64,000 nt of DNA, from the NCBI GenBank assembly GCA_012295275.1, contig CM022676.1, positions 13,454,001 to 13,518,000 of the forward strand. The letters are read 5' to 3'. A program made the position numbers and the translations under genes. How positions within the stretch are numbered: the first letter of the stretch is position 1; the number at the start of each line of letters is the position of its first letter. This document shows positions 214 through 64,000 of the stretch, piece by piece. A model generated the notes under the pieces. It saw only the letters and a program-made list of their open reading frames with translations. It was not told the DNA's origin and searched no databases. The stretch comes from Chrysomallon squamiferum (lineage: Eukaryota; Animalia; Mollusca).

Positions 214-3200
214 GTATGTTTACAATATCAATGTACGAATTTTAGTAACATTTTTCTTATTTGTCTGTAAATCCTCTGTGATTCACAATTTTTGTAAATT
301 AGTTTTTACTGTTAAAAAATAGTAGTGACACAAACTAAAATTGTTCTTCATAAAATGAATTGTTTGTGAAATTTTGTAATTTTCTAATACAGATTAACTG
401 TTATTATCTACCATTTTATTCTGTCTTTTGTAAGATTAAAGATACAATATATTCTAATGATGTTCCAAATTTTAGTTGGTCCTGACAGAACTGATATAAA
501 TGGAAACCAAGATAATTTTGATGCTGATGGAATCAGAAATTTGACCTTGACCTGTAAAAGTACATCATCAAGTCCCAGTGTGAACTTTACTTGGAGAAAC
601 CTCACTAGTGGTCAGATTCTGATTTCAAATGAACCAATCAGAGAACAAGACGCTGGTGATGGAGGAAAGCTGTTTAGTCAGAATCTGGTTTTGGTTCCAC
701 AGTGGTATCAAGATGGAGATGAAATAGAATGTGAAATACAGAATTCTCAGATACCTGAACAAAACTCAAAAACAAAAACTACACTGAGTTTGATTTGTGA
801 GTAGAATGTAAAATATTATTTATAATAATAGTAATGATGATGAAAATAATAATTAGCAGGCTCTTAATATATACTAGATTTAGATTTGCTAAATTTTTGA
901 TTAACAAGACATATGACATTTATATGTGTAATGTTACTCTTCACTTACAACTGGGCTAAAAAATGGACTAATTAACAGCAATCATTATATTTTTAAAATA
1001 TCTATCAAACGGATCAAAAAGTTATGCAATAATTAAATATCTATCTGTGTATGTCAGATTTATGAAGTAAACTACATCTAAAATTTTATTTATTGTTCCA
1101 TATTTATAGAAAACCATTAATAAATATACTGAAAATGAATCAACATAACTAATAAAAGTTTGATGTTTATTATAACTCAACATAAAATTATTGCATTCAG
1201 AGAAGGATGAAAAAGGATGATGCCAGACTAGAAATTTCCCCAGTTGGAGAAACATGGATGTAGTGTTATTTATCGAGAAAATTTGCCCCTTCTTTGCTAT
1301 ATGATTTAACAGTGACATATATTTCTTTCAACCATTCCGATGAACTGACTAATACATATGAGAGCACAGACTCTTTTCTGAAAATTAAAATGTCATCAGA
1401 GAGAAGACATAGTTATTTATAATAAATCTACGGATTTAAATCCATTCTCTTTTCCATAATACAGTAGTTCAAATGAGTATAATTACTATGATAATTTTTC
1501 TTTCAGCTGCACCTAAGATCATTAACAAAACAGAGAACATTGTGGGAGCTGAGATAGGAAATCCTGTTGTATTACACAAATCTGTGTTTTGTAAACCAAG
1601 TTACACAAATTTTACCTGGAGTAAATTTGATGATCAAACTGATTTTAACAACACTCTACAAATACACAGTAAAACAGTAACAGATTCTGGTTACACATTT
1701 TCTCTCAATATCAGTAATTTTACTCAAGATGACATTGGAACGTACAAACTGACTGTCTGTAATGAAGTTGGATGTTCTCAGTTTTCTGTGAACCTAACTG
1801 CAGCAGGTCCACCTCTTCCTCCTAAAGAGTTCCAACAAGAAAGAGAATCAACATCAGACACAGTGTTCTTGTCCTGGCTACCTAACTACCCAGGTGGTAA
1901 TTTCAAACAAAGATTTATACTGCAGTACAAACCACAAAGTGACTCTAACTGGATTACTGCTTGGCAAAGTGAATGGTTTGATGACTCAATACAAGGACAC
2001 AAAGTACTTTTTAATATCACAGATCTTCAGTCTAAACAAGTTTATAATATTCGACTGTCAGCTCAAAGTAGCAGACTTTCAAATAACACCAGTAAATATG
2101 TTAGACTTGATGTCACAACACAGGGTAAGTAAATTGTATATTGTGAAAACATTTAAAATTAACATAAAGTTAAAATGAAATTGATGATTCAATCACTATC
2201 TAATTATTCCAAAAAATGGAGATCATTTCTTTGTGTGTATTTTTAAAAGGTTTCAGTTTTCAGTTAAAGCTATATTTTTAGAAAGACAAAATGTGGTGCA
2301 TATAAGAATTGTGGATTAATAAAACATAATTAAGAAATCTTTGCATTTGTATTTACAGTTATTGTTTATGATGTTAAATAATTACAATTTTAGAAAAACC
2401 GAGTGGTTCAGGTTCTCTGCTTGGTGCAGCTGTAGGAGGAGCTGTTGGTTCTGTGACTGTCATTGTTGTCATAGTGATACTTGTTCTTTTACTTAGAAGA
2501 CATCTGCCATTTGTTTTCTCAAGTAAAATGGGTAATATACTGTTAAGACTACAACTGACTCAATCTCAGTGTCTGCTCTTGAAAATTTGTCGAACATGCT
2601 GTGAAGTCTACCACTATCATTTTGTTTTTTCAAGAAATGCCATGTGTTAACTCTAGGATGATAATTATCCAAACAAATTTGTTTTCAATTTCTTTTATTA
2701 TTCCTTTTTGTTTTCATCTAATATGTAATACAGATTACTGTCTTTCGTTATTTGTAGATCTATTAGGAGTGTGAAATATTGTTTATTAGTTTCTTAGTAA
2801 AAGAAGAACATTTTTGATTAAGTGATTTTAATAGAATATCCTTTTCTTCATAGATTTATAATAATGAAACAACCTATGCAACTCAAACAATAAGCAGCTT
2901 CTTCTGTTCTTAAAATAAATAATTTCCTTGCTAAAATAGTATTTTATTATCTTTAATTAAAGGTAAGGATGCAGAAAGTGGAAAGTAAGTTAACTTATTA
3001 GCTTCTATTCTGGCTTAATCTTTATTGCTTTGTGTAGTTGTTTCATTCTTTTTCTCTCTTTTTGTTTTTTTCTCAAGTCTTTCAAATACCATTTAAGTCA
3101 TACCTTCGTGTGCATTATTTCTTCATGTTTTTCTTATAACAAGAATATCTACATATGTCATGGTGTGCTTATTACTCCTAAATTCAGATAGAAATCAAGC

Positions 3201-6200
3201 AAATATTTCATTTTGTTTCATTGTGTATGTTTGTGTGTAAACAGCTGATCTTCAGCTTAAATAACTTAAATAACTCTTAATTGTGTTTTACTTGTTTGTG
3301 TTTAAAAGAGGCAAAAAGGAATTACCTTAATTCAGATAGTATTTGTAATTGCTACAATTTATTAGTTTAGAAAAGTTAAATTTAATTTGTTAATTTCTCT
3401 TGTTTTACGTTTTGTTGCTTTATTGGTAGAAGATTAAGAATAGTAAAAAAGAAAAGTTTCATAATTACCATTTTGTTATAAAATTGGCTAAAAAAGTGAT
3501 TTTGATAAATTTTACATAGGAATCCAAAGTATAATGTCATAGTGGTTTAACATTTTTATTGTTTCTACATCTAATTAAGAAGCATACAGCTACTAGACTA
3601 GTTACATACAATTACTAATCTTAAAAAGAGACATCAATATTTTTATAAAAAAGATAAAATAATTTTAAAATGGAATGAATTACTATACTGTTCTTCTTGA
3701 ATCTGCATGTAATAAAATGAATAGTCTAAATGTGATATAGGCAGCTTAATTTATTCATTAGTAATGGGTTTTTTTTTTTTTTTTAAATATATATACATAC
3801 AAAAATAAAATCTATTCCAATCTGCCAGGAATTGTTTCTATTTTAGGCATCCATAAATCTGTTTTTGTTATGCTTGTTTTTAGTATTTTGCCCTGAATTT
3901 TAAAGAATTGTTTGAAAACGTAGCTTTTGATACTGAAATAACTGTCTGGGTTAGCCTTCAGTTTGCCTCTTTAATAAAACTATTTGTATCTTTCCACCAC
4001 TCTGTCTTTTCTGAGACATACACAAATGTATCAGTATGATAAACTCTGATGTTAAATATAATAATAATTGTTTCCACACATAATCCTAAATATACATATT
4101 TGAAGCTAAATTTTAACACTTTTAATTTTTGCTTTTCAGTCCAAGGAATATACCTGCACATGAAATGCCTGGTATGAGTTACTTTTTAATAATCATTTTA
4201 CTCTTTTATTGTTGTTGTTTTTTTATAGTTTATACTTTTCCCATCATGAAATAATATCTTTTCAGTTTAACTAGGGTTTAACTTTTATTATTATTATTTT
4301 ATTAACTTTTTTCATTTCCTTTTTTGTTTGTTTATTGGGTTTTTTCTTTCTTTTTTTCCTTTACCAATGTTACTGTTTTAAATAGTATAACAACAGATAT
4401 GGGAAGAGATGTATATTTGGACTGTATCTGTTTATTTTATTTTATTTTTTTTTATTTTTAAAGAAGAAAGAACAAAAGCGTCAGAAAAAAACATACATTA
4501 AGTTTGTTATTCACTGCTTTGTGATCTTTTACAGTTTTGGAGGACAGTCAATTATATAATCTGTTTAATAACAGTTCCACATCATTAAAACTGCCTGGTA
4601 TGCCTTGTAACAAAACAATATATATATATATATATGTATTTATTTATTTATTTGTTATTTGATTTATATAACATCTATAAAGTAGTTCTAAATTTTATTA
4701 CTACATAACTTATAAAAATAATCTGTCACATTTTTAACCATTTTATTATTAATACTGTTTTATTTTAGTGTTGGAAGATAATGATTTGTATTATACCTCT
4801 AGTAATGATGGTGTAAAGAATGTACAGCTGCCAGGTGACTGATTGCAAATCTTTTCGTCTTTTTCTTTCTATTTAAGAAAAGAAAGTAAAGAGTGTGTTA
4901 TTTCATATCTTAATCAGTTTGAATAATATTTTATATATTAAACTGTCATCTTCAGATGATCTAGTTTTAGAAAAATTTTATTTTCTTTGGTAATATAAAC
5001 ATTTTAAGACTAAATAATTATTTAGAAACAAAATTACAGAATTATAACATGTTATTTTGTCTTTATATGAAAAAACAAATAACTATGGTCATATTAGGCC
5101 AGATACAAATTTAATGGGTTGCAGGATTAATAGTTTATTAAAGCCTTTTACATTCTTTCCTGTTTATGGGAAAGTGAATTTGTAAATTACTTGTTACGCA
5201 GCAATTTCGTCTTTTTTCTATTTCACATTTTGTTTGTTTCATTAAGTTCTAGAGGATAATGTGATCTATCACACAAATAATACTGCAGCTGCAAAGAAGG
5301 TACAAATACCAGGTGAGTGTAATTATATTGCTATTTTACTGCCATTATTAAGTGCTGTTTTAAATCTTGAAAATTAAGTCTTACATGTCAGCCACTCTAA
5401 GGACAATGCCCCACTTTTTAATGACAGAGGATTTTATCAAACCTTATTTAATACAAAAATACTACATTCTGATCACTGAGTATTCACTTGTTAATTTACA
5501 TACTGTCGTTGACTGAACGGCAAGCAAACAGAGTTTGATTGTAACAAATATAATTTTGTGTATCAGCTCTGAACCATCAAAATACTTTCACAATTTTATG
5601 TCATTTAAATAATAACCGAATAGTTGGTTTATATTTTTGAATATCTGATAAAGATGTGAGTGTTGATAACTAAGAGATAAATGAATGCATAAATGTACAT
5701 GTTGTTAAGTAGCTATGCTAGGTAAAAAGTGGCAAAATTTGAATACCAGACTTATTTTTGGTTTTTGACACAAGCATTTAGAAAACATACATAAAAATGT
5801 AATTTATTCTGTGCGATTTTATAGAAACAGATATCAGTTTGAATTATTTGACCTGGGTTGGAGATATTCATGAAATGTGGTAATATAATTTAAACAAATA
5901 AAATAATAATAAAATAAAAAAAATAAAACAACATTTTTTACTATAACAAATGGGCATCATTTCCATTGTTTCAATTCTGTAACATAAATATTAATGATTT
6001 TTCATTTTCGCCACATGCGCCTTTAATTAGAATAATAATAGTAATGCTTTACTATTGTTACTTTTGTTCTACATTTATTTGTTTTAATGATCTAAATTAA
6101 TAGCATTGAAGGATGTACATATATTTTTAGCTTTTAATGATGCCATTTTCAGTTTTCTCTTCTTTTAGTAATGTAATTAATGTAATGAGAATAAAATTTA

Positions 6201-7681
6201 CAATAATAGAAATTGTGTGTGTGCCTGTATGTGTGCTCAACCTGAGTTATGTTCAAGTGGGGAAAATGTGATGGAAAATCCAGAAAGCCAATATTCAGTT
6301 GTTATTAAAGCCACATGTAATCAGAGTGATTACACCGAAAAAAATAAAAAAATAAAATTACTTTGCTATGAATACAGAACACATTTAACTGTAACACATA
6401 AAAGGCAGGTGTTAATTCATTTATTTCACACAATATTTGTTATTTATGCAAAACAACAACAACAACAACACTACAGTAACTTAATAACAAAATGCCATCT
6501 CATTACATGTATGTTTCATATTTGGAATTTAGTATGAAGAATAATTTCTGTAATTTTCTGAGATTATTAGCATCTGAAGAACATATGTGGATCAAAATGT
6601 ATCTCTTGTACTGTAACATGTATGTTGTTCTAAGTGCATGGATTTCAGATATGTAGTCCAAAATTCCCATAAAAGAGTTAAAGTAAAATCACAAATAATA
6701 CTTTAAAAATGCCTTGATATTATAAAGAAAAATTAATAAACGTACTCTATTTCTAATCAATAAATATATATATATTTTATTTAGAAAGTGAAGTTTTACC
6801 AGGAATAAATACAGTTAAATCTTGAACTCAAACTTCCATTTATTAATATCCATACAAGTTTACAAATATTAATATTTTTCAAATTACTTTCTCAATTATA
6901 ATTTCACTTTTAAAATGATTTTTGTTTTTCTTCCTATTGCAGATGATAAAAGACCACTGCATCAGTCTTCAAGGGGTAAATATATTTGAGAATTTATCAT
7001 TTTGAATTTATAAATAACCAATAACAATTAAAAAAAAATTTAAATTTAAAATAAAAGAAAGAAAATCTTATTACTCAATATTGATTAGTGCTATTCTCTT
7101 TCACATTTGCTAAAATGAAATTTTAAAATTGAAATATATTTTCCATTGCAGTTATATAATTTTTTGGGGGATTTATGAAATCAACTCATCAACTGTTGTC
7201 TAAGAAGCAGACATGTCCCTTTATAATTTTTTGTGTTTTAATTCAGGTGATACTTACGAAAATGTTGGAATTGGAAAAGTAGATAATCAATATGCTAATG
7301 CTGCTTACAGTGGAAATGATGATCCTACCTGTGAAAATGTCAAGGTAATTGTATTGAATGTTGTGTTAATGTAATTATATGAAGCCTGCAAAAGACATGG
7401 TATAAAGGAAATAAAAATAGACAAACGATTAATTGAAAAGATACTGTTAATAGCAGGGAGGCATATGTATACTTTTTAAGCTGACAACAGCTCAATTATT
7501 TCAGGGACCAAAGCATGGACGAAATAAAGATGGGTTGCTGTATGTTGGTATAGATTTCTCTAACACACAACCAAGTAAACAAGTTCACAAAACACAGGAC
7601 AAAGTGGAGTACATCTCCATTGACTGGAACAAGAAAGCAGAACCACTTCCTGATAATAAAGAAACTGAACCAAAATATTAA
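1..7681 (+). CDS. Gene A: IgSF (Ig-Ig-Ig-FN3-TM) receptor with ITIM-bearing cytoplasmic tail, 5' end outside window; exons <1-213, 476-796, 1507-2124, 2394-2531, 2963-2984, 4140-4171, 4535-4597, 4769-4834, 5247-5312, 6943-6975, 7247-7344, 7505-7681
   Basis: All listed exons have AG/GT boundaries and join in one continuous frame to TAA at 7679-7681. Ig motifs (C...W...YxC), FN3 motif (LSW...F.LQYK...L....Y..RL.A), hydrophobic TM followed by RR, tail with LLYVGI and VEYISI. Confidence 0.88.
476..796 (+). CDS. Gene A Ig (C2-set-like) exon, module b
   Basis: tttag| acceptor, LTLTC...FTW...DGDEIECE, T|GTGAGT donor; 321 nt, same length as paralogue 28563-28883. Confidence 0.9.
1507..2124 (+). CDS. 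Gene A Ig+FN3 exon, module g
   Basis: tttcag| acceptor, G|GTAAGT donor; Ig (FTW...DIGTYKLTVCNEVG) followed by FN3 (GPPLPP...LSW.P...QRFILQYK). Confidence 0.92.
2394..2531 (+). CDS. Gene A transmembrane exon (TM type 1)
   Basis: EKPSGSGSLLGAAVGGAVGSVTVIVVIVILVLLLRRHLPFVFSSKM; paralogue at 57049-57186 (-). Confidence 0.88.
4535..5312 (+). CDS. Gene A three tandemly duplicated cytoplasmic micro-exons (4535-4597, 4769-4834, 5247-5312), each VLED-x3-Y...P
   Basis: VLEDSQLYNLFNNSSTSLKLP / VLEDNDLYYTSSNDGVKNVQLP / VLEDNVIYHTNNTAAAKKVQIP; all phase 1-1 with AG/GT. Confidence 0.82.
6235..6340 (+). pseudogene. Decayed cytoplasmic exon of gene A containing SQYSVV (ITIM consensus), splice sites lost
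   Basis: AQPE...ENPESQYSVVIK is homologous to the intact exon at 13757-13891 (-), but the acceptor and donor regions are missing here. Confidence 0.7.
7247..7344 (+). CDS. Gene A cytoplasmic exon with YENV / YANA motifs
   Basis: GDTYENVGIGKVDNQYANAAYSGNDDPTCENVK; attcag| and |GTAATT; paralogue 12862-12959 (-). Confidence 0.83.
7505..7681 (+). CDS. Gene A terminal exon with two ITIMs
   Basis: GPKHGRNKDGLLYVGIDFSNTQPSKQVHKTQDKVEYISIDWNKKAEPLPDNKETEPKY*; tttcag| acceptor, phase 0 matches the preceding exon; AATAAA near 7740. Confidence 0.87.
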   Translation, partial: GPKHGRNKDGLLYVGIDFSNTQPSKQVHKTQDKVEYISIDWNKKAEPLPDNKETEPKY

Positions 7682-10681
7682 TGAACAAAATGTTATATTC
7701 ATATGGAACCAAACCCCTATAAAAACTACAACAAAATGAAATAAAAATCCACTATTTTATATATTTGTACTTTTATTTACTTTTCAAAATATCATCAGCT
7801 ATTTAATGTTTGGTATTTTTTCTTTATCTGCCATAAACAAAAGTGTTCATGTATTATACCATACAGAGAAATTTGTAGATAAAATCTGAAGAGATCATTA
7901 GCATTCTTCCAGAATTATAATACAGTGACTATGGAATTCCAAGAAAAGAAATAATGCTTAGCAAGAATTATTAATTTTTGAACAAATATGGACCATGTCT
8001 AAAATGTATTGATTATAATTTTTTAATGCTTTAGTTACAGTTGTGTTCTAATACTGTTTTAGAGCTTTCCTTCATGTATAAACAATTTTAGGGTTGTTAT
8101 TGTGAACTGTGTCACAAAATGATTTCAAACTGGAGAATACTTATTTTAAATTGAAGAAAAAGTACCTCAAAAATGAATTCTTTTTTCCCCTATAAATAAG
8201 AAGTGAACTATTAAGAATGAATAGAGAAATCTTAGTTTTATATTGTTAAGAATAAAATATATTTTATAACTAAAATAAAAATAATTATTTTCTATTTTAT
8301 GTATTTTTTTTAAAATATACAAAATACTTGTATTTCTTGTAAATATATATTTTAATGTGTGTGTGTGTGTCTGTGTGAGTTCCTTAAATGTATGTTTGCA
8401 GAAATATGTGTTAAATGGAATAAGTACATTTTGATACAGGTGTAAATATGTTTCATTAAGAGATCTATAGTTTGAATGTAAGTATGAATATATTCATACA
8501 AAATCTAATTTAAGGTCAGACAAAATCAATTTTGTATAATTTTGTATGCTATTTTATTTTATTTTTAAAACGGAGTTAGAAAACTAGACAATATAAATTC
8601 TGACAAGGATGTTTATCATGTTCATTTAGTATTTTGCTTTTCTCTTCCATACAAAAGATTTTACTTAAATGTATTATTAGAGGCAATCTAATTCAGGCTT
8701 CAAGTATTTGTAGTTTTTATTTCCTTCTTAATTCGGTGTGCCTAAAAGAATTGACACCTGGACAGGATTCTAAAAATGACACATCAATAAACAAATGTAA
8801 ACTTAACAATGTTGCCTGTTTCTCATCCAGATTTTTTGTTACTTTCATATTTTGTGAATTACATTGTGTGTCTAATTGTTGAATAAATTGACTTTGTTTC
8901 ATAACCAATTTATTGATTATTTTACAAAATCTTTACCTATGGTCCTAATATGTACTAATTAACGAAAATTACTGGGATAACATTACAAGTCTAATACCAA
9001 ATTATTTAGAGTTTTTTGTTCTCTTTGATATATAAAATTTAATACATCTGTTTCAATCAGGATAGTTTTATTATTTTCATAGAGCTCACACTGTGGGAAT
9101 ATTGTTAAGTATTTTTAAATATTAGCTGATGATACTGCAAATATTTATTTTTATTCATAATATTAAATTGAGAGTGTAAAGTTAATATTGTTTATTAATT
9201 TTCAATATTAAAAAACAATGAAATAAGTGCTGCTTTTAACAAATCCTGATTTTTGCTATATTGATTTTTGTATCACATTGTATAGTTTTATGGATATTTG
9301 TAAAATGTTAGCATTTGCATTGTTGTATTCGTTTTAATCAATTGCTTCTACTTATTAATATATTTTTATTGTTGTTGTTGTTGTTGTAAATAGACAAAAT
9401 ATTCCATCATAATTTCTTAAACATTCCATGAAATGATTTTCTATTGACAGATTTTATTTTGAGTGTCTGAGATTTTGCATCATTTATAAAGGATAAATAT
9501 TTTATTTAAGAAATATTTCAAAAATTAAATGATGTTTGATATGAGATACGTTTTTCATCATGTTTATTTGGAGTAAGTTGATGGATTCAGTGCTAATGGA
9601 TTTTTATTGTTGGCTGTTTAAGTCAGTATCCAGCTTGTATAAACAAAACTGTTATATTAAATTGCCAACACGTCCGATAGGTATGCATACATTATATTCA
9701 TACATACATATATTATATATACATTATATACATATATACATGCATTATTATACATATATTATATACATATATACATGCATTATATACATACATACGTACA
9801 ATATACAGACATATATACATACATTTATTTGCTATTTATAAATACAAAATGATATCAAATGTTAAATTCTCAAATATAGTTACTACTGGAAGACTGGTGC
9901 AATGATTTTTCATCACCTCAATAGGGGAAGAAACACAACCAAATATTTTAAAAGTAAAATAAATTATAACTGAGAAAGTAATTTGAAAAATATTATTATT
10001 TGTATGGATATTAATAAAGGGATAGTTGTGTTCAAGATTCATCAGAATTCTCTTTCTAACCAAAAATATATGTTTATTAATTAACAAGAGTACAAGTTGT
10101 TTATTAATTTTGCTTTGTATATAAAACACCTTTCAAAGTATTATTTGAGATTTTATTTAAACTTTTTTTAATGTGAATTTTGGTCTGAATGTTTTTAAAC
10201 CATACACTTAAAACAACATTTGACATATTCAAGTACAAAGAGATACATCTGTTAATAATCTCTGAAAATTACAAAATTATTCTTCCTAATAAATCCCAAG
10301 AATGAAATGCAGGACAAGGAATGACCGAATTAGTTTTAAAAAGATGTCAAACTGGAAAACGTTGTCTTTCTGTTAGTAACTTAGGACTGTACCAATATGT
10401 TACATCCTCTACGTCAGACTGATGTGCTTGCTTTCGTGAATCTTTTTTACTTGGTAAATGTAAAACTATCATTCTAAGATGCAGTTTTAATCATAACTGG
10501 TGCATCACTACAATCTTGTATTAGAGAAGTTTTTGTAAAAAAGTAAATTAAAATATCAAAAGAGTCAAAGTTAAACTGTTACAGATGTCTTAATTAAAGG
10601 TATGTCTTATAAAAGATGATATTACATTTCTCACATAAACCTTTTGAATAATTTGAATAAATTGGAGTTAAAATCTTTGAG

Positions 10682-10714
<33 letters not shown>

Positions 10715-10872
10715 TTATTTTTATATTTTATTATTTTTTTTTTGTTTTTTAGGAAAATTAAATTTCACTTTATTGTTTCATGCTATATCATGGTCCATAC
10801 TTCCAAACACTAATCATATCTGTTTTTTTGTATACAAAATAAACTAATAAAAACGTAACAATTGTATAGTCT

Positions 10873-10930
<58 letters not shown>

Positions 10931-13915
10931 TTCACAATCCTAATGGGTAAAAAATGTTATATTACAGCTGATTCACCTTTTTTTGTTTTCTTTTTTTTGT
11001 TTATCGTTTGCATTAACCAAAGCCTATCCTTTCTTTATCTCTTTCTTCTCATTTTTCATTTATTGATCTGCAACATCAAAAATCTGATGAGGCGGCATTT
11101 AAAAAAAAAAAACTTAAGGAGTTCATTAATTTTGTTTTAAAATGAAATTAACTGATTAGTTAAATGCGCTTTAGTGCAGAAATAACAAGAATTATGTTAA
11201 ATGAATTAATAAAGATCCTGAAAGTAACATGATAAAAGAAAATAACATGACTTGTATGACTTTCAGTTAAATATTTTATTTACTCATATCAAAATAATGT
11301 TTTGCTTTTATCATACCTCTGTCGTTTTCTTTGTTTTCAGTTTAATTGCTCTGTTTGGTCTTAATAACAACTGAATATTGGTTTTCTGAGTTTTCAGTAA
11401 CAGATTCCTCACTTGTACCTGGCTCAGGTTCGGCAATATTTGTTTCTTCAAAGAATGTGAAACAAATTTACGCTTATGTCATCTTATGTTGTATTTGTAT
11501 TTTATTACATTAGTTACATTAATAGAAGAGGAACAAAATTAAAAAATATAGAATCAAAAACTGACGATATGTGTACATCATTCAATGCTATTAATTTAGA
11601 TCACCAATAGTAATAAAATATAACAGAAAATTTAAACAAAATAAAAATATAATGAAACACAAAAATAAACAGCAGCAGTAATATCAACTGTAGAAATAGA
11701 ACAAATGTAACAATAGTAAAGCATTACTTTTATTATTCTAATTAAAGGGGCATGTAGTGAAAAATCATTTTTTATTTATGTTACAGAATTGAAAGATTTG
11801 AAATAATGTCCTTTTATTACATCATAAAAATAGTTTTGGTTTATTATTTTACGACAAATTTTTATTTTTACTTTTGTCTTTTTTTTAAATACCGTGCTAT
11901 TCAAATTGCTGGGCTTCATCATAAAACAAAAAAATTAATCTTTACTTAAATACTTCAAAAGAAAGTAATGTATATATATATATATGACATTTTATTTTTT
12001 ATTTAAAAAAAAGAAAAAAGACAACAACAAAAACACAGGAAAGTTATATAAAGGTCATATGAAAAGAAGAGATAATGTTTCCAAGATTTTCTTTCAGTCA
12101 TTTTAAAGTGTTTGTTTCTAAATATATACATTTCTAATTTGGAAAAGAAAAAAGACATGACACATTTATATGAAAAAGTAAATTTTGTCACTAGCATACC
12201 CCGTTAACAACATATAAATTTAGGCATTCATTAACTATTAGTTATTAATGGTCACATTTTCTTTAACACATATTCACAAATATAAACCAGATACTGGGTT
12301 ATTACTTAAATGACATGAAATTGTTGAAATGTTTTAATCTATTCAGTTTGTGATACATAAAACAATATTTATTATAATCAAACAGTTTTTTTGCTATTCA
12401 GTCATTCACATTAGGTATATTAACAACTAAACAATCAGATCAGAATGTAATATTTCTGTATTAAAGTCCGTAGAGTGGCTGAAATGTAAGACAATATTTT
12501 CAAGAATACAACGTTACACAAGATTGAAAAATAACACTAAATTATGTTAATAATGAATGTAACATAATAATATATTTACACTTATCTAGTTTTTGCCTCT
12601 TTTTGCAGCTGCAGCATTAGTTGTATGATAGATCATATTATCCATATTACCCATCTTAATCTCGGCCACACTTTGCTCCCTGAAATAACAGAGGCATAAA
12701 ATGAAACAACCAGTTGATGGTGTCAGCTTAAAACGTATGCATCTGCCTTCCTGTTATCAACAGTAACTGTACTTTTTTTCTTCTTCTATTTTTAATGTCT
12801 TTATATCATGTTTTTTTCAGGCTTCTTATACTTACGTTAAAATAACAGTCAATAAAATTACCGTAACATTTTCACAGGCAGGATCATCATTTCCACTGTA
12901 AGCAGCATTAACATATATATTATATTCTTTTCCAATTCCAACATTTTCGTAACTATCACCTAAATTAAAACACGTCTTAGGCAACAGTTGATGAGTTGGT
13001 TTCATAATTCCCCCACCCAAAAAACAATTACGTAACTGTAATGAAATGGAAAGATTATGTTTCAATTTTAAAATTTCACTTGACCAAATGTGAAAAAGAA
13101 TATCACTAATTAGAATAGAGTCATTATAAGACTTTTTTTTTAATTTTTAAATTTTTAATTATTTGCTATTGATAAATTCAAAATGATACCAGATGTTAAA
13201 TTCTCAAATATATTTACTCCTTGAAGACTGATGCAGTGGTCTTTTATCATCTGCAATATGGGAACAAAAACAAAAACATTTTAAAAGTGAAATAAATTAA
13301 AACTGAGAAAGTAACTTGAACAAATATTATTACCTGTAAAGTTGTATGGATATTAAATGGAAAATAGAGTTCAAGATTCACCTGTATTCATTCCTTGTAT
13401 AAATTCACTTTCTAATTATAAATTTATATTTTTTACTTACAAATAGAACATGTGTTTATTAATTTTTCTTTGCATACTAAGCACTTTTCAAAGTATTATA
13501 TGAAATTTTATTTAAACCTTTTTTTTTGGGGGGGGAATTTTGGTCTGAATGTTTGAAATCCAAATAAGCAGTTCAGTTATCTTTTAAGTTACTTATTTTA
13601 GTGGGGTTTTTTGTGAAGAAATAAAAAATATGATGTTAAATAAATGAATGAAAATATTGAGAGGCACATATGAAATAACATAACATCTGGCTGTTATGGT
13701 TTACAGTTAAATGTTTTATTTACTCATATCGAAGTAATTTTTTGTTTTTAACATACCTCTGTCTTTTTCTTTCTTGTCAGTAATATCACTCTGTTTACAT
13801 CTGTTCTTAACAACAACTGAATATTGGCTTTCTGGATTTTCCATCACATTTTTCTCACTTGTAACTGTCTCAGGTTGAGCAGTATTTGTTTCTTCAAAAA
13901 ATATGAATGAATGTA

Positions 13916-14704
13916 CAGTGATACTTAAGTTACGAGTGCACCAGCTTATGAGTTTTCTGAGTTACGAGCAGTCGCAGAGGTGATTTTTTGCTTTGAGTTG
14001 TGAGCCAAAATCTGAATTACGAGTGAGTTTCAGATACACCGCCGCTAGTTGGCGCAATGAACAACATAACATCGGCCCAGCATCCCGTGCCTCGCTCACT
14101 TGATTTATGTCGTTACCTCGCCATTGAAGCACCTCTATTATGCTTGTGTTTTATGCAGTATTTTGCCAAATTTCTGTTTTCTGACCATGAATCCTAAGAA
14201 AGTGAATGCAAAGGACATTGCTGAGAAGAAGAAATGGATGATGTCCATTGAATTAAAGCATGAAATAAACGAAAAACATGAGCGAGGTGTGCATGCAGTC
14301 AAAATGGCTAGGCAATACGAGCGTAGTACTACTATGATACATACCATACTAAAACAGAAGGAGTTGATAAAAGCTACAACTCCTGCTAAAGGTGTTAAAA
14401 TAATTTTAAAGCATCAGACCTATGTCATGAAAAGACTGAAAAACCCTAACCATGTACACTTTACAAAATCAATCTATTTCTTTACAGTCTCTTTTATTTT
14501 GTTTTTATACAATATGTGTCGTTTATACATGCATTTTTCTTATTTAAAAATATGTTACAAAAAAATGGAGTAGTTTTGGGGAGACTGGAACAGATTAATG
14601 GTATTTCAATAATTTGATTTTGGAAAATTGATTTGCTATATGAGCAAACTGAGTTACTAGCTGGGTCACAGAACAAATTAAACTCATAAGTCAAGGTACC
14701 ACTG
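13916..14704 (+). mobile_element. Internally deleted Tigger/pogo-family (Tc1/mariner superfamily) DNA transposon
   Basis: TA target duplications flank imperfect TIRs CAGTGATACTTAAGTTACGAG / CTCATAAGTCAAGGTACCACTG; ORF 14100-14573 includes a CENP-B-type N-terminal HTH-like fragment (MSIELKHEINEKHERGV...MARQYERS...IHTILKQK). Confidence 0.88.
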
Positions 14705-17392
14705 TATATATATTCTGTCATTTTAAATTTTGTTTTTATTTTATTAAATTAATTACATTGACAAAAGAGGAGAAAAATGAAAAATGACATCATTATAAAC
14801 TGAAAATATATGTACATCCTTCAATGCTATTAATATAGATCATTAACAGAACAAAAAATAAATAACAAAATATTTTAAAAAACTAATAACAGTGAAACTA
14901 AGAAAAGTAAGCAGCAATAACAGTTTTACATGTAGCACAAAAGTAACAATAGTAAAGTATTCCTTTTATTATTCTGATTGAGGGGGTGTGCGGTGAAAAT
15001 GAAAAATCAGTATTCTTTATGTTGCAGAATTGAAATGATTGAAATAATCCACATTTGTTATATTAAGAAACTAGTACTAGTTACTGTTTCTTTTTTTGTG
15101 ACAAATAGTTAATTTTATATTTGTTTTTTTTTAAATTTCATGAACATCTCCAACAGAAACCAATATATATAATTCAAACTGATGTTTGTCTACAAAATCA
15201 CGGAGAGAAATTAGTCTTCATGTAAATACTTCCAAAGAAATATTTAAAAGTTAATATGTTTTTCAAGTTGTGTAAAGTTTATATGAAATGAACAATGACT
15301 TTTTCCAAGACTTTCTTTTTGTCATTTTGTAGTGTTTGTTTCTAAATAAATATACATTTCAAATTTGGAATCTAGCACAAATAGTTATCATGCAGCATCT
15401 TCCCAAAATGTTAGCATAGTGTGAAAAATGATACATCTAAAAAAGAAAATTAAGTAAATGAAGCTTTATGAACCATATTTCCATTTATTATGGCTATAAT
15501 GATGATGTTCTTCTTCATTATTATGTAATCTGTTTATATGCATTTTCTTTACCAAACAAAACCCTGAAACATTTATCAGAAAAAGTACATGGTTAATGTA
15601 TGTAAATGGTTCTGTCAAAAATTAAAAACAGGTTTCTTATACAAATGTTGTCAGTTTTTGCCTAACATATCCCCTTAACAACATATACATTTAAGCATTC
15701 ATTAACTATTAGTTATCAACTCACATCTTTATCAGATACTCAAAAATATCAACCAGTTAGTGGATTACTGTTTAAATGATATAAGATTGTGAAAGTGTTT
15801 TGATCTATTTAGATCTGAAACATAAAATTATATTTGTTATAATCAAACACTGTTTGCTTGCCGTTCAGTCAACGACAGTATGTAAATTAACAAGTGAATA
15901 CTCAATGATGTAGTATTTTTGTATTAAATAAGGTTTTATAAAATCCTCTGTCATTAATAAGTGGGGCATTGTCCTTAGAGTGGCTGACATGTAAGCTTAA
16001 TTTTCAAGATTTAAAACAGCACTTAATAATGGCAGTAAAATAGCAATATAATTACACTCACCTGGTATTTGTACCTTCTTTGCAGCTGCAGCATTATCTG
16101 TGTGATAGATCACATTATCCTCTAAAACTTAATGAAAGAAACAAACAAAATGTGAAATAGAAAAAAAGAAGAAATATTTCTTTTGGAGGGACTCAGAATA
16201 TTTATAACCTACAGTTTATCATATACAATACTTAGGACACAGCTAATAAAAGAAGAAACGTGCTGTGTAACGAGCAGTTTATATATTCACCTTCCCATAA
16301 ACAGGAAAGAATGCAACACGTCTTTAATAAACTATCTGTGGAGCACAGAGAGGATAAATCCTGCAACCCGTTACATCTGTATCTGGTCTAAATATTACAA
16401 TTTAATTATAAACCACTTCTTATCATTAACATGTTGTTATGTGTCCAGTTTTTTCATATTAACAGAAAATGACATGCTACAATCTTTAAATTTGTTTCTA
16501 AATAATTATTTAGTCTGAAAATGCTTATATTACCAAAGAAAATAATTTTTTACTAAAACTAGATCTTTTGAAGATAAAAGTTTAATATATAAAATATTAT
16601 TCAAACTGATTAAGATATGAAATAACACACTCTTTACTTTCTTTTCTTAAATAGAATGTCAACTGTGAAAAGATTTGAAAAAGATCACCTGGCAACTGTA
16701 CATTCTTTACACCATTATTGATACGTTATGTTGCAGAACTGTTATTAGACAATAATATGTTTGAATGGCCTCCAAACTGTAAAAAAGATCTTCAAGTAGT
16801 GAATCACAAAGTGAATGATTTTTCTTCTGCTTCTTTTTATTTTTCTTCAAAAATTACTTATGACAAATGCAGTCGAAAAATATATTTTTTTTCCTTACTT
16901 ATTTCAATCACATTAATATAAGTAAGATATATATAAGTTAAAAAATAAATAAAATAAGAATAATAATAAAAACAAATAAAAACAAATATAAATAAAAAGA
17001 AAGAAGTTCAATTAACACTTTTAGAACTGAAAACGCAAGATTTTATGTTAAGTATAAACCATGCAGGTAATTTGCTTGGACAAAAAAGCAAAATTAAGTG
17101 TATTCAAATGTGAAATAAAATATGGAGTAATATGCCTCCAAATAAGTATATTTATTACTATGTGTGGAAATCTTATTACTGCATTTAACATAGTGTTTAT
17201 TATATTGATACATTTGTGTATGTCTCAGAAAAGATAGGGTGGTGGAAAGATACAATTAGTTTGATTAAAGAGGCAAATTGAAGGCTAACATTTCTTGACA
17301 TCATCCTTATTCGACCCTCCCTGAAAAAAAGAGAAGAATTAAAATCGATCTTGATTTTGCTGATATATGTACAGTTTAAATATATGAACAGA

Positions 17393-56392: not shown

Positions 56393-56511
56393 TCATTTGT
56401 CACTTTTCTTCAGATTTTCATACAGGTTCAGTTTAGTGTATTGTGGTTCTTCTCTGCTTTCTTGCAGACCTTGATACGTGTGGTCAGCTGTTACAGTGTT
56501 ATTTACAGCAC
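56393..56511 (-). CDS. Gene E terminal ITAM exon
   Basis: GAVNNTVTADHT-YQGL-QESREEPQ-YTKL-NL-YENL-KKSDK*. Confidence 0.87.
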
Positions 56512-59500
56512 CTGAAATAATTTTAAATGTTTAAATAAAATATATTCTCTTTAAAATAACACTGATTTCATTATAGGTTAAGAAATATAATTATGTTTAC
56601 CAGTTTGTCTCAGATTTTCGTACATCTCAATTCTTGAGTATTCAGTAGTATCTCTGTTTTGTTGAAGTCCTTCGTATGTTTGATCTGTAACTGGACTAGG
56701 ATGTTCCATAACTGTAAAGGTAACAGAAATCAGAAACTGATAGACAAAATATTACAACATTTAGAATTGTGTTCAGGAAAATACTGAACTGTTACAAAAA
56801 CAGCAACAACGACTATTACTGCTGGTACTACAAGTATTAATGCTACAACGTAATTTTATGTAATATTTGTGAAAGATTTTATCGTATGTTTTGTGTGTTT
56901 TTTTGTTTTTTTACCGTTATGCTAAAAGGTAAGAATCTTCAGGTATAGATTATTATAATTGAAGGATTCACAATGAAGAAAATAACCTACAAGACAGTTA
57001 CTGTTATTGTTTAATTTATCACAATTTGCAGATTGTTTAAGAAGATACCAGATTTGTTTGAAAATGGTCCACGTCTTCTAAGCAAGAAAACAAGTATCAC
57101 TATGACAACAATGACAGTCACAGAACCAACAGCTCCTCCTACAGCTGCACCAAGCAGAGAACTAGAACCAATCTGTTCTTCTGAAGCTGTAATAGATAAA
57201 TAACAACTATAAAGTATAATACCATTTTTTTCTTCTAAAGATGTAATTGTTAAATAACATATATAATACCATTTTGCTGTTCTACAGATGTAAATGATAT
57301 TAATATTTCACTTATAATTGTTTTTCTGTAAACGAAAGAAACACTATTTTATTATTAGTATTATTAATAGTAATTAAATACCATAGTAACATTTTATTCT
57401 TCAGTAACTGTTATCAATGCTTAATGATGATTGATATTATTATTATTTTTTAAATGTTTATCATGGAAAGGTGATTAATAATTAAATACAAGCAATAATG
57501 TTGTTATAAAATTGTAATTACAAAATAAATATCAAACAAATTCATCTTTTTATTATAAAACCGTAAAATGTATTAATGTGTATGTATATGTGTGTGTGTG
57601 TGTGCGCGCGCGCAGGGATATATTGACTTACGAGTGCCCCAACTGAATCTCGATCACAAAACGAATTAAACTCGTAAGTCAAGGTATCACTGTATATATA
57701 TGTAATTTTCCGCCTGCTTGTTAAGACAATTTCTAATGTTAGTAAAAAGAAAGAAAACCTTTCAGATGTGTGATTGGATTATACTAAAAATCAGCAGAGA
57801 GAAGAGTGATAAATATTGTATGGAAATGAATGAAATGTAAGATACTTCCACTGAAAATGAATAAAATTCTGTAACAAAAGAAAATAAATATACTCATTCG
57901 CATAGAGATACACGAAAACACACATGCAATCTTACACTCAGAGCTGTATAAACAGTAATACACTAATAGTATATACTCTGTAACTGGAATAAAACATCAA
58001 AAGGTAATAAATCCAATATTACCAAACATGATAAAATTCAATTAAATGATTTAACTATAAAGCTATATATATTTATACTGAGAAATTGTAGAACATATAA
58101 ATATTTCATACGTATTTATTTTCATCGTTTTTGTACATATTTTATTTTATTTTACTACTGGTACTACTACTAACAAAATAATTTTCATTTAATTAAATTT
58201 AATAGCAGATAACCTTTTGTAATTACTTGAAAAATGACGTAATTGCTCATATTGTCTTGAGTTCTTTTGTTTTCAGCAGAAATTCTGACATCATAAATTG
58301 TTTTGTCTTTGAGATTGCTGATATTAAAATATATTTTCTGTCCTTGTGTTTAGTAATCGAACAGTTCACTATGGCAAGTAGTAATCCAGTTAATCTTTAC
58401 TTACCCTGTGTTTTAACTTCAAGTGTAACATATTTACTGATGTTATTTGAAAGTCTGTTACTCTCAGCTGTCAGTCGAATATTGTAAACTTGTTTAGGCT
58501 GAAGATCTGTGATGTTGAAAAATATTTTGTGTCTGTATGCTGAGTCATCAAATAATTCACTTTGCCAAGCAGTTATCCAGTTAGATTCACTTTGTGCTTT
58601 GTACTGCAGTATAAATCTTTGTTTGAAATTACCACCTGGGTAGTTAGGTACCCATGACAAGAACACTGTGTCTGATGTTGATTCTCTTTCTTGTTGGAAC
58701 TCTTTAGGAGGAAGAGGTGGACCTGCTCCAGTTAGGTTCACAGAAAACTGAGAACATCCAACTTCATTACAGACAGTCAGCTTGTACATTCCAATGTCAT
58801 CTTGAGTAAAATTACTGATACTGAGAGAAAACTTGTAACCAGAATCTGCTACTGTCTTACTGTGTATTTGTAGTGTGATGTTTTCTCTTGTGACCTGACT
58901 GTTGTTAAAGTCAGTTTGATCATCAAATTTACTCCAGGTAAAAGTTGTGTAACTTGGATTACAAAACATAGATTTGTGTAATACAACAGGATTTCCTATC
59001 TCAGCTCCCACAATGTTGTCCATTTTGTTAATGATCTTAGGTGCAGCTGAAAGTAAAAATAACCATATTAATTATAATCATTTAAACTACTGCAATATTG
59101 AATATTTGAATGCAGCTGAAAGTGTAATTATATGAATGATAAACAGTTAAACTATTGCATTATTAAAAAGAGATTATATTTGAATGCAGCTGAAAGTATA
59201 ATTATATTAATGATAAAGATTTACCTATTGTATTGTAATGTGTGTTTATTTTAAACATGTGAAGAGTAATAATTCTTAACAAAAGTAATTTGAAATATTG
59301 TAGTGTTCCAGAGGATTTAATCAATTTTTACAATACATGAACAAATTTAGACATTCAACATTAAGAAATATAAAGATCTGAATTTTTAAAACACATGGAT
59401 GCTGCTGTGTTCTTTGTTAAGTATAACTCAATTTTATACATTATTGAATATTTGTTCTTCTTTCGAACTTTTAATTACTGAACCAATACTGTTTAGTTAT

Positions 59501-62500
59501 CATTCAATCTCTCGGTCATAAAATTGATGCTGATCTCATAAATGGTTTTTCTCCCAAACTGTATAACAAAGCAATGAAATCTGTTTATAGCCTAACAGTT
59601 AAAAGTCGTCAGAATAACCTCCCCATCAACTGTGTAGTTGATTTATTTGATAAATTAATACAGCCAATTTTATTGTATGGTTGTGGAATACGGTGCTTTA
59701 CAAATATATAACTAATAGAAAGACTCCATATGAAATTGTGTAAGTATTTACTAAATGTTAATAAATGTACCCCTGGTTTTATGATCTATGGTGAACTCGG
59801 ACGGTATCCCCTTTGTATTTCTATAAAAGTAAGAATGATAACGTTTTGGGGGAACCTAATTTGCAAAACCCAAAACAAGATTTCCTCACAACTATATTAT
59901 TTAATGCATGTTATCGATTCTGCTTACAACAAATTTGTAATAAATATTGAAGATGTTTGTGGTTTAACATATATATGGACGTATTACAACTTTGATAATG
60001 TTAAATGGTTACATATCCAAAATATTACATGATCAGTTTTAACAATTATGGAAAAATCAAACTGAAACATTTCTAAAGGCTATTAATTATAATTTTTTTT
60101 AAAATGAACTGAAATTAGAAAACCATCTTATTTTGCTGTCTCAGAAGAATGCTAATATCTTATGTAAATTTAGAACCGCGAATGCTAAACTTCCTTTTGA
60201 AACTGGACGATGGTCTAATATTCTAAGACTCTTAGTAAGAGACAACAGAAAATGTTATATCTGTAATCTTAACAAAATTGGAGATGAATGTAATGATCCT
60301 GTATTATTAAATGAAACAAAAGGTATCCAAGATAAATATATGAGACATTCAAATATAATTTCATAAAATAATTTGTTTAACAGTAAAAATATATTTTTAT
60401 TAAAAAAGCTATGTTTGGTAATAAGAACTGTATGTGAGAGTATGTCCTCCACTTTAAAATTCCACATATGTGTATTATAATTTTGTTATTATGTAGCTGT
60501 AATACATTCTTCTCTGTACTGTAATCCTACAGTTTATGACAATAAAGTCACTGTCATTGTCATTGTCATCAACAATTTTTATCTTTCCAGAGCTTCACTC
60601 TTAATACCAAATATAACAGTGTTGACTTGTCTATATCACACCAGTCCAAGTTCAAAGCTTGTTTCTGGTTACTGCTGAACAAAGAAAACATAGACAGACT
60701 GAAAAATGTGGAAGTCATACGGGTGTTAAATTTATTGTTACATGGATAACAAATGTTGGTTCAATTATAGACCAGTATACAAGTCCTTCTTAAAAGATTA
60801 GTTTTGTTGCACGGATGCAATTTGTTACAGAATGAGACAAAGATGTAAGAAATCTCTCAGCTATCTAAGGTGAATTCACTGATTATTAATCACATGTGCT
60901 GAGGTGTAGACTCCATGTTTGACCCCTCAATCTTTGGCTACATATAAAGCTACTAACTTTATGTTTATCAATGATTTTCTGTAAATATGGAGTAATAAAT
61001 ACAATTTTGGATGAAGTTTACTTCATTAATTTGATTCACCAGGAAACTGATTTATTTCTTTTACCTTTTTACCCTTAAATACGTCTGAAAGGATTTTTTA
61101 TAAATAGCGATTGCTATGTCAACTGTTAGCATAGTTTTAAGGAAATAAAATAAAAAAATTGAGTTTATAATATATTTCAAAAAAAGGTTGTATATATATA
61201 TATACACACATACAAGATAAATACAGTTAAATAATTTTCTTCACAACTAGAATTATTTAAAAATTATTACTATTAAAAAATATGGAAACTATGTTACACA
61301 TTACATTTGAGAATTCAGTAGCCATTTATGAAACCTGCATAGAAATTTGGAACATGACAGTGAACAGATGTTAATTGAGGTATTATTATATAGGTTGTGG
61401 AAGTTCAGTAAACATTATTGTTTTGTTATTAAATTATAGATTGGTACCTTTAACATAAACACTGCTGATTTTGTTTTGTAGTAAACGTCCATTCCTGTCT
61501 GGGATTCCATTTTCCACAATACAGACGTAGATTCCACTGTCTTCAAATGTAACAGGATTAAACTTCAATCTGTACTGATTACCTGTTACCTTTGTTCCTG
61601 ACACATCTTGAATAAACACGTCATTCCAGTAATGTTTGAAGTGTTTGAAGTTCATGTTGTCAGGACGACCATCAGCAGAACAGTTGATATTCAGTGACAT
61701 GTTTTCAGTTGTGTTTAAAGAAGGAAAAGTCAGATCAGGAGCATCTGTAAACAATTACTAAATTTACAGTAATAAACCAAGTCATCAAGTTAAACAAGTC
61801 GTCATACACTTGATAATCTAACTGTCTGCCTAAAGATAACAGATCACAATAACTAAAACAAGATACTATTTTATAAATATGTTATATGTACATTTACAAT
61901 TCCATTTTATAAAAAAACAAAAATGCAAAACAAACAAACCCCAACCCCCCCCCCCAAAACTAGAAACATTGCTGATAAATACTTAATTAGGAATTAAAAT
62001 ATAATTTACATAGAAAGTTAACAGAAAACTCAAATAATTAGTGTTTTAATTACTCACAGTTAACTATAATTTTAATCTGAGATGTTCCAGTTAGTGTTGC
62101 CAGTGAAGATGACGCTGTTGCTGTACACGTGTATGTACCGTGGTGGTCTCTGTCAAGTACTGGAATATGTAAAGGGAAACCACCAGTCCAGTGAGGTGAG
62201 GTTGATGTCCAGTTGAGTGTTGTGTTTGGAGGATTGTTGTCTGCAGAACAGTTGACTACATCCAGACTTTGTCCTTCCCGTCTTATGATTGGTCCTGATT
62301 TATCAATACTCACTCGTGGTTGGTCTGTTAAAAATTAAGAATAAGAATGATGTAAATGTGAAATTTAAAGTATGTAAACTGCTGACTCACCTCATATTTT
62401 TCCACAATCTTTCTATTAGATATACTTATATAAATAAACATAATAAGATGATATTTTCTCAATGTTCAGTTTAACAAATAATAAAATCCTATTTGTTGAT

Positions 62501-64000
62501 TTTATTGTTTACTTGAACTTCCATATGGTATTTATATTTTAATAAATATTAGAATCATATACTGACAATTAATATACCAATTATTTTATCAAAAATTACC
62601 AGTTCCCTTAATATTGTCTTTTTCTCTACTTATGATAAAAACAGTGAATGTTGTAATGCACTAAACACTTTTTTTCTAATTACTGAGTCATTTTTTTCAT
62701 GGAAAAAGTGTTATCAACACACCATGATTGTTTCCATACATTAGTAGTTGGAAGACAAAAAATGTTGACTTTGGTAAACAACTTCTCTGTATTTTAAATA
62801 AATATAGCTGCAGGAATTTTGATAGCAAAGTGAAAATTAACCACATAAAAGAATTAAGGAAACACATGTGTTGAACTGAAAGACGCTGTCCAGAAAAAGC
62901 AAGACAATATTAATCAAGTTCTAAATAATAAATAAAGAAGCTTTTGACAACGCAAATAGTACAGAAAAAAAACATTTCAGTGAATAGAAAATTCAACAAA
63001 ATTCAACATAAAATAAAATAATACTCATGCATGATTTGGTAAGTTTATATGTATAAATATCCAGATTATTTTAATTTTCTTTAAGAGTACTCATCATTAA
63101 TTAGAACTAGATTTGTGAATAGAACATTTCAGAGATAATAACATTTTGTTTCATTAAACTACACAGTACTCACAGTAAACATTTAGTGTTTTATTTTCAG
63201 ATGACTTTGGATCATTTTTGTGGAGTGTGAAGTTATTTGTAGCCTGACACATAAATGTCTGACTGTTGTCTGTGTAGGACAGATTTTTGAACAGCCAGTA
63301 GGAGTTTGTGTGTGTGGAATCTTTCACTCCGTTCTTAAACCAGACAGTCACAGCTGGAGGATTTCCTCTGTCAGACACTGCACAAGTCAGCTTTCTACTC
63401 AGACCTTCTAACCACGGAAAACTCAAACTTGAAACCAGATCTGGTGATGATGGCGGATCTAAACAAAACATTATAAAGAATTTATTAAAATGTCGAATTA
63501 AAAATACTTTAAGAATAATAAAAAAGTAAACCAAGAAAACAAAGTATTTTAGTGTTCTAATCATTATGTTTGTTAATTTCCTTTCAGTGTTTTTACTGTT
63601 GCTTTCATCATTGTTACTGTTATTGTTATTATCATCACTGTTATTATTATTATCATCACCATCAATATCATTTCCATTATTATTTTCATCGTCATTATTA
63701 TTATTATTATTTGTATTATTGTTGTTGTTGTTGTTGTTGTTGTTATTATTATTATTATTACTACTATTATCACTATTATATACTTACAGTACACAGTGAG
63801 TGTTTCAGTGTCTGTGAGATTATATCTGTGAGTCTGGTGAACTGCACTGCACTGACAAGTCTTAGAGTTGAGATTTCTTGTAACTGTAAATGACAAATCT
63901 ACAAAAACACTGTTTTCATCTCTCTCAGATGAAGTTTTCATGTGAGCTGTGTCACAAGACAGACTTACTGATGTCACTAGAGGTTTACCACCTGACACAA
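56393..64000 (-). CDS. Gene E: multi-Ig-FN3-TM receptor with two ITAMs, 5' end outside window; exons >64000-63788, 63458-63174, 62324-62058, 61744-61448, 59046-58405, 57186-57049, 56711-56601, 56511-56393
   Basis: All boundaries AG/GT, phase 1-1, continuous frame to TGA at 56395-56393. Confidence 0.88.
56601..56711 (-). CDS. Gene E first ITAM exon
   Basis: VMEHPSPVTDQT-YEGL-QQNRDTTE-YSRI-EM-YENL-RQT. Confidence 0.87.
57049..57186 (-). CDS. Gene E transmembrane exon (TM type 1)
   Basis: SEEQIGSSSLLGAAVGGAVGSVTVIVVIVILVFLLRRRGPFSNKS; alternative in-frame acceptor 6 nt inside. Confidence 0.87.
57613..57692. mobile_element. 80-bp MITE-like derivative of the same Tigger/pogo family
   Basis: TTGACTTACGAG ... 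CTCGTAAGTCAAGGTATCACTG+TA: only the two TIR ends remain. Confidence 0.75.
58405..59046 (-). CDS. Gene E Ig+FN3 exon, module g
   Basis: Paralogue of 1507-2124 with an extra 8 aa (SQVTRENI). Confidence 0.92.
59550..60569 (+). mobile_element. 5'-truncated degenerate non-LTR retrotransposon (LINE) 3' end, antisense in a gene E intron
   Basis: LFDKLIQPILLYGC, YGELGRYPL, KFRTANAKLPFETGRW and RKCYICNLNKIGDE motifs typical of LINE ORF2 C-termini; AATAAA followed by a (TGTCAT)n tail. Confidence 0.85.
61448..61744 (-). CDS. Gene E Ig exon, module k
   Basis: LNINCSADGRP...FEDSGIYVCIVENG. Confidence 0.9.
62058..62324 (-). CDS. Gene E Ig exon, module j
   Basis: EGQSLDVVNCSADNNPP...LNW...DHHGTYTCTA. Confidence 0.88.
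63174..63458 (-). CDS. Gene E Ig exon, module d
   Basis: Near-identical to 27308-27592. Confidence 0.9.
63788..64000 (-). CDS. Gene E Ig exon, module c (partial)
   Basis: Near-identical to 27913-28209. Confidence 0.88.

Follow-up and report, generated by a model that had tools for sequence, protein, structure and literature searches.

Mosaic Ig/FN3 receptor genes of the vent snail Chrysomallon squamiferum probably arose by germline duplication, deletion and a few cassette or tail swaps

A 64,000-nucleotide (nt) stretch of the Chrysomallon squamiferum genome (GenBank assembly GCA_012295275.1, contig CM022676.1, positions 13,454,001 to 13,518,000; hereafter the window, with positions counted from its first base) contains five related genes for predicted single-pass surface receptors with Ig and FN3 domains. 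Exon mapping placed gene A on the + strand and genes B, C, D and E on the - strand. Extracellular modules (named a to k besides the V, C1 and C2 types), two kinds of transmembrane (TM) exon and tails bearing an activation or inhibition motif of the immunoreceptor tyrosine-based kind (ITAM or ITIM) recur among them in different combinations. We conclude that the mosaics probably stem from a long template that was duplicated in the germline, from deletion, from a few swaps of cassettes or tails, and from ongoing exon-centred gene conversion. The readings weighed below are not mutually exclusive, and the likelihood stated for each is to be taken by itself.

A reading of the sequence alone had described the genes as mosaics of a common pool of phase-1 exons that intronic recombination or exon skipping could recombine. 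Its module maps of all five genes were recovered at the exon level with AG/GT sites, given that A and E are incomplete, B is a pseudogene and the C2 donor of gene C reads GA. Self-comparison of the window found repeated blocks in both orientations.

Which shared modules require an exchange

Exons common to two genes are 87-99% identical in nucleotide sequence. A and C share a (210/213 nt identical) and b (302/321), C and E share c (208/213) and d (275/285), C and D share e (253/261), f (283/288) and TM2 (122/129), and A and E share g (575/618, 93%) and TM1 (115/132). The non-shared counterparts, d versus i and e versus j, are only 32-35% identical as proteins. As predicted, module phylogenies were incongruent. 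In the d/i tree (12 rows) C grouped with E (support 96/99) and a C+D grouping was rejected by the approximately unbiased (AU) test (p-AU 5e-70), whereas in the j/e tree (11 rows) C grouped with D (100/99) and C+E was rejected (p-AU 0.0013); long branches were flagged in both trees. A grouping of i from D with i from Gigantopelta was neither rejected nor resolved (p-AU 0.28), and that of j from E with j' from Gigantopelta was borderline (p-AU 0.048).

Much of the mosaic appearance follows from an older domain order. When modules were mapped on relatives, Haliotis (abalone) proteins P0140 and P0170 read V1-b-c-d-j-k-g, Gigantopelta P0007 read C1-h-b'-c'-i-j'-k, Gigantopelta P0005 read V-x-c'-i-j'-k-g-TM1-2xITAM, and scallop and ark-clam proteins carried c-d...k-g plus ITAM. 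Seven modules of P0170 were matched in order at 28-43% identity, compared with 56-64% for h, i, k and g in Gigantopelta. The order in E is the same as in the abalone and Gigantopelta proteins; h and i stand before k-g in Gigantopelta and before e-f in D. From these maps we regard the order b-c-d-j-k-g, which the abalone proteins retain, as old.

The b-g intron of A (797..1506, + strand) resembles the C b-c intron at its 5' end and the E k-g intron in its middle and at its 3' end. None of 200 shuffles reached either score, although the b-c match was marginal (54 versus a shuffle maximum of 51). Since this intron keeps pieces of both of those introns, it is the footprint of a deletion by which A lost c-d-j-k. 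Similarly, pieces of the E d-j and k-g introns remain in B together with the tail of A, so B descends from the same long template and has decayed. For A, B and E, then, ancestral order plus deletion or decay suffices and no shuffling of ectodomain exons is needed.

Two combinations are true chimaeras. The e-f-TM2-ITAM cassette follows 5' halves that are unrelated, with c-d before it in C but h-i in D, and g-TM1 is followed by opposite tails, ITIM in A and ITAM in E. Both require an exchange, but a freely shared exon pool is an overstatement. Whole-gene duplication with deletion and purifying selection only, under which exon likeness would reflect constraint and introns would simply diverge fast, accounts fully for A, B and E, and in its favour the a-b, c-d and e-to-tail blocks share introns at a similar 16-27% divergence. 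It cannot explain why the d of C goes with E and its e with D, and we consider it improbable as the whole explanation.

Homology between C and E stops 7 nt past the d donor, and that between C and D is patchy over the opening 15 nt of e, beyond which it is nearly complete. The C d-e intron between these points matched the D i-e and E d-j introns no better than shuffles did (59/200 and 121/200 reached the score), and the introns around TM1 were no more alike in A and E (136/200 and 77/200). By the same measure, six intron pairs expected to be homologous gave scores that 0/200 shuffles reached. Because the junction introns match no partner beyond shuffles, crossover within introns is not demonstrated; the exchanges may be old or may have occurred within exons. 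The proposal of intronic recombination therefore found no support.

These observations bear on a freer model, in which any phase-1 exon moved between genes by intron crossover to give many independent combinations. Gigantopelta P0005 and P0007 have c'-i-j'-k in common and differ upstream, as such a model would allow, and RNA (described below) has e behind d and behind two i-like ends, as well as an ITAM exon on an A-type tail exon. On the other hand, domain order is conserved from abalone to C. squamiferum, the swaps stay within positional class, a d or an i being followed by an e or a j, and the junction introns lack hybrid homology, their scores being reached by 59, 121 and 80 of 200 shuffles. 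We judge free movement of exons unlikely.

Symmetric phase 1-1 was observed in 22 of the 25 complete domain or TM exons, the exceptions being V2 of D and the two-exon C1-like domain. Exons for Ig domains are ordinarily in this phase.

Exon likeness and gene conversion

Shared exons are more alike than the introns between them. Over eight exon pairs with C, synonymous differences numbered 24.5/406 sites, compared with 235/1318 intron sites lying >=30 nt from an exon (p 3e-10). Four-fold sites differed at 14/350 (4%) over ten pairs, versus 18% in introns, where the ten include two A/E pairs whose introns lie outside the intron set compared. Intron divergence rose with distance from an exon, from 13-15% at 8-60 nt to 19-20% farther out. 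The low four-fold and high intron divergence fit exon-centred gene conversion, which we infer to be the cause of the exon homogeneity; a model combining interlocus gene conversion with purifying selection is described as predicting synonymous divergence below intron divergence (10.1101/2025.10.29.685298).

Two places are not explained by constraint. TM1 of A and E shares a 74-nt identical run flanked by unalignable introns, although the exon is rich in Gly, Val and Ala codons. The d remnant of pseudogene B shares a 119-nt identical run with E, with 0/19 four-fold differences, while the adjoining intron differs at 37/138 sites (~27%). Both count further against duplication and purifying selection as the only forces.

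The probable history would thus run as follows. An old V-b-c-d-j-k-g-TM template would have been duplicated in the germline, and internal deletions would then have shortened copies. A few unequal exchanges may have swapped the membrane-proximal cassette or the tail, with exchange points presumably inside or at exons, where paralogues stay alike. Continuing exon-centred conversion would keep the exons alike, and phase 1-1 would let the products of exchange keep frame.

Several points weigh against this account of duplication, swaps and conversion. A 68-nt intron piece differs between A and B at only 3 sites, and conversion is thus not confined to exons. The synonymous-versus-intron comparison is one without an unrelated single-copy control, and AT-rich introns may mutate or misalign faster. 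There was no sign of diversifying selection between copies, non-synonymous change not exceeding synonymous change in most pairs; exons a and c gave non-synonymous to synonymous ratios of 3:0 and 4:1, counts too small to use. From the reads described below come three more. The short side of the d-e joint is 28-29 letters, below the 31-letter bar for bridging, and because contigs collapse paralogues the joint shows a C-type transcript and not this very locus. No DNA contig spanning d, intron and e was present among the 32 of 846 pieces listed, both DNA runs covering the intron. Finally, the mosaics seen at a tail joint and in mid-exon amount to one contig and 30 letters apiece.

Transcripts and sequencing reads

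Nine of eleven sequencing runs contained part of gene C, and none contained half of its sampled words. Four runs were compared as contigs over 23530-29000, the b-to-tail part of C; the results below are drawn from 15/25 joints, 24/147 loose ends and 32/846 DNA pieces. C/D-type RNA was detected in both RNA runs, X8 and X9. GT-AG joints b-c, d-e and e-f were present in both, with a c-d piece in X9. The mosaic d-e junction was therefore confirmed as spliced in RNA of two samples, the intron being removed by a GT-AG joint from 27308 to 26865. In X9 the 15 nt of e that follow this joint were those of C itself; just 3 letters differed, each deeper in the exon. A second b-to-c joint (28209/28567) occurred in X8 and X9 with four other letters at the b end, from a b paralogue or an allele. 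Exon skipping, which had been suggested as a source of variety, was absent among the 15 of 25 RNA joints listed.

Could the mosaics be an assembly artefact, with paralogues collapsed or mis-joined, or majority exon letters spread by polishing? The best DNA run contains only 41% of gene C's sampled words, and the T-run frameshift in D and the GA donor in C could be errors. Still, the d-e splice occurs in independent RNA together with the opening 15 nt of e in C's version, and single DNA contigs of exon length show 2-4 differences and are far deeper than intron contigs (in X1, e 348, d 150 and c 170 versus 12-24). We rate an artefact as very improbable. Exon contigs were several-fold deeper than intron contigs in both DNA runs, which is no measure of copy number but hints at a larger family of near-identical copies.

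Loose ends and joints also showed combinations beyond those in the window. Two i-like exon ends in X8, neither of them D's, were joined to e; an ITAM exon in X9 was joined to an A/B-type tail exon, which differed from 12615-12643 at 1 of 29 letters; and some X9 contigs began like c or d and turned unlike in mid-exon. Each of these was seen in one contig. Somatic rearrangement or conversion in blood cells might be expected to build such combinations, but we found no support for it beyond them, and further germline paralogues outside the window explain them. Every gene has its own signal-peptide (SP) exon and ordinary introns, and the junction introns are old and unalignable. Instead of incomplete segments joined in somatic DNA, we found genes that are whole in the genome and spliceosomal introns that are removed in RNA. 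The chance that somatic change built the mosaics seems to us next to nil.

Gene layout, relatives and signalling tails

The exons and other features are collected in the table. The window has a G+C content of 28%. Its ends truncate A and E, base 1 falling within exon a of A and base 64000 within exon c of E. Pfam assigned Ig or FN3 domains to 14/18 scanned pieces, an Ig match being absent for the V2 piece of D and for three unrelated frames.

Table. Receptor genes, gene remnants and the mosaic junction in the window
Feature	Strand	Extent	Parts
Mosaic junction, C d-e intron	-	26866..27307	no homologue in D i-e or E d-j intron
Gene A, part 1	+	1..7681, 5' end beyond window	a 1-213; b 476-796; g (Ig+FN3) 1507-2124; TM1 2394-2531
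Gene A, tail exons	+		2963-2984; 4140-4171; 4535-4597; 4769-4834; 5247-5312; 6943-6975; 7247-7344; last 7505-7681
Partial third copy of A/B-type tail	-	9825..12650	
Pseudogene B	-	12862..21928	SP exon 21874-21928; a/b fusion ~19400-19555; c/d fusion ~18765-19044
Pseudogene B, rest	-		pieces of d-j and k-g introns of E type; tail exons of A type 17300-12862; orientation opposite to A
Gene C, 5' part	-	23579..33185	SP 33185-33131; V1 31543-31238; C2 30802-30464; a 29468-29205; b 28883-28563
Gene C, 3' part	-		c 28209-27913; d 27592-27308; e 26865-26605; f (FN3) 26333-26031; TM2 25691-25563; ITAM tail 24010-23912
Gene D, 5' part	-	35249..42939	SP 42939-42885; V2 42000-41684; C1-like in two exons 40949-40798 + 40331-40148
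Gene D, 3' part	-		h 39868-39554; i 38861-38574; e 38235-37975; f 37728-37441; TM2 37154-37014; one-ITAM tail
Gene E, 5' part	-	56395..64000, 5' end beyond window	c 64000-63788; d 63458-63174; j 62324-62058; k 61744-61448
Gene E, 3' part	-		g 59046-58405; TM1 57186-57049; ITAM exons 56711-56601 and 56511-56395
Older stranded copy of FN3 3' part	-	58213..58349	directly past E's g donor

The joined exons of A give an open frame of 614 amino acids. C reads as a 922-amino-acid open frame only with the C2 donor reading GA, not GT (position 30464), which is either an error, a rare site or a cause of forced skipping of this phase 1-1 exon. In D the V2 exon is 317 nt long with a frameshift in a T run, and an open frame for the gene requires that V2 be left out or that the frameshift come from faulty assembly. 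In pseudogene B, a is fused to b and c to d within exons, what is left of d contains a stop, and the last (ITIM) exon is truncated. The stranded FN3 copy past the g donor of E is identical to E g at 18/41 residues and to five Gigantopelta proteins at 19-23 of 43-44.

Other remnants lie around and within the genes. Between D and E are an isolated Ig fragment of the C2/C1 set that runs into a stop (45812-46081, +) and an exon from another receptor gene that encodes a TM and a long tail (47517-48163, +). Decayed copies of the shared promoter and signal-peptide region, lying upstream of C (33958-34374, 34940-35000), are signs of more lost genes, as is a copy of the C 3' flank at 46.4 kb (23140-23413 versus 46392-46667). 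Degenerate copies of a DNA-transposon-like element lie at 14030-14707, inside the B tail, and at 44869-45460, with a short piece near 57640-57700. Inserted fragments at 59500-60370 (+), in the k-g intron of E, gave no Pfam match for the piece scanned; we take them to resemble a non-LTR (long terminal repeat) retrotransposon. GA arrays come after the final exon of both C and D (23427-23524 and 35073-35187), and AAT arrays stand in introns beside domain exons (25877-25954, 26983-27050, 27766-27903, 28458-28539, 63620-63779). Microsatellite-bounded diversification has reportedly been proposed for the sea-urchin Sp185/333 genes; here such arrays are common throughout the window, so those beside exons do not by themselves point to such a link.

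The closest proteins are from Gigantopelta aegis, at 56-64% identity. The exon g search matched five proteins, all from G. aegis, at 57-59%, and h and i of D match proteins of Gigantopelta at 57-64% identity. Molluscan predicted proteins (Gigantopelta, Haliotis, Argopecten and Tegillarca) called 'syg-2-like', 'nephrin-like' or 'CD22-like' have the same domain classes in the same order as the window genes, and several of their tails (P0004, P0005, P0009, P0012, P0104, P0124) carry ITAMs as in C, D and E. The names of the molluscan 'syg-2-like' relatives are automatic, and the searches turned up no close relative of the e-f-TM2 cassette or of the a, b and d versions of the window. Exon b, used to look for longer proteins, gave none at E 0.01, which is weak evidence, and in a search with exon d against 50% representatives a close relative was absent among the best 150 of 644 matches (best module score 66 bits).

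The last exon of A carries two ITIM-consensus motifs, whereas the tails of C and D contain a single ITAM and that of E a pair. Opposite motifs thus sit on paralogues with alike extracellular parts, as in paired receptors: g (93% of nt) and TM1 are alike in A and E, a and b (94-99%) in A and C. With ITIMs in A and ITAMs in E behind the same g-TM1, ectodomain and tail type are uncoupled, a supported part of the earlier reading. The A tail also includes, at 4535-5312, three phase 1-1 exons in tandem, 63-66 nt long and containing one or two tyrosines apiece, so tails are modular too. The gene model of A omits a possible ITIM exon near 6240-6330, which in comparison with B has lost both splice sites.

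By analogy, the ITAM members may activate through a Syk-like kinase and the ITIM member inhibit through an SHP-like phosphatase, and the set may act as paired immune or self/non-self receptors. The proteins might instead be adhesion or neural-recognition molecules of the nephrin/SYG-2 type, for which the same genetics would be possible. A collinear V-b-c-d-j-k-g(Ig+FN3)-TM series is present, placing them in a molluscan nephrin/SYG-2-like Ig-FN3 family; an array of Ig domains followed by FN3 and TM suits such a role, as do matches to Drosophila nephrin and to SYG-2 at 23-24% identity and the 'syg-2-like' database names. Canonical ITAMs and ITIMs on otherwise common scaffolds, pseudogenes and fast lineage-specific turnover speak against it, and we find an adhesion role somewhat unlikely. 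A molluscan precedent also tells against it: oyster CgIgR, a TM receptor with five Ig domains and a tail ITAM, is described as binding bacteria and recruiting Syk (PMC6994640). CgIgR is a single receptor, and the passages on it describe no ITIM partner or mosaic cluster. An immune role of the window receptors is suggested by analogy.

Other systems offer partial parallels. Hydractinia Alr is described as an invertebrate cluster of Ig, FN3-like and TM receptors with one domain per exon, exon shuffling and pseudogenes (10.1101/2022.03.04.482883; 10.1101/2022.03.25.485889). The window genes resemble it in these cluster features and in carrying ITAM or ITIM in the receptor's own tail; Alr proteins are given 1-3 Ig domains and window receptors have up to seven; none of the matched proteins bore an Alr name, and the likeness is an analogy only. 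The Xenopus XFL family is described as building many architectures from few Ig subtypes and two TM types, with like-ectodomain pairs and birth and death of genes (PMC2413239). Its activating forms use the FcR-gamma adaptor, whereas the window receptors have the ITAM in the tail and a TM without a charged residue; XFL is a vertebrate family and not homologous to the window receptors as a family. In the account of Siglec-11 and Siglec-16, repeated gene conversion, for which a dead allele has served as donor, maintains the likeness of inhibitory and activating paralogues (PMC5701461). The A/E pair differs in that its proven shared part is membrane-proximal (g, TM1), the N-terminal ends lying beyond the window.

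Paired ITAM/ITIM Ig receptors evolving by domain shuffling and conversion were previously known from vertebrates and a cnidarian, and searches of an open-access library found none described for a gastropod or as a cluster in a mollusc, subscription papers lying outside the search. If the pairing is functional, molluscs would use the same logic of activation and inhibition, on a family masked by names such as 'titin-like' and 'syg-2-like'. Tentatively, and with more doubt than confidence, we suggest that the window belongs to a large molluscan receptor complex in which exon-scale conversion remixes ectodomain pieces, half-domains and ITAM/ITIM tail exons, giving each snail its own paired set, possibly to tell symbiont from pathogen. 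The locus offers a clear natural example in which exons remain alike and introns appear to escape conversion, and its receptors are concrete candidates for bacterial handling by the vent snail.

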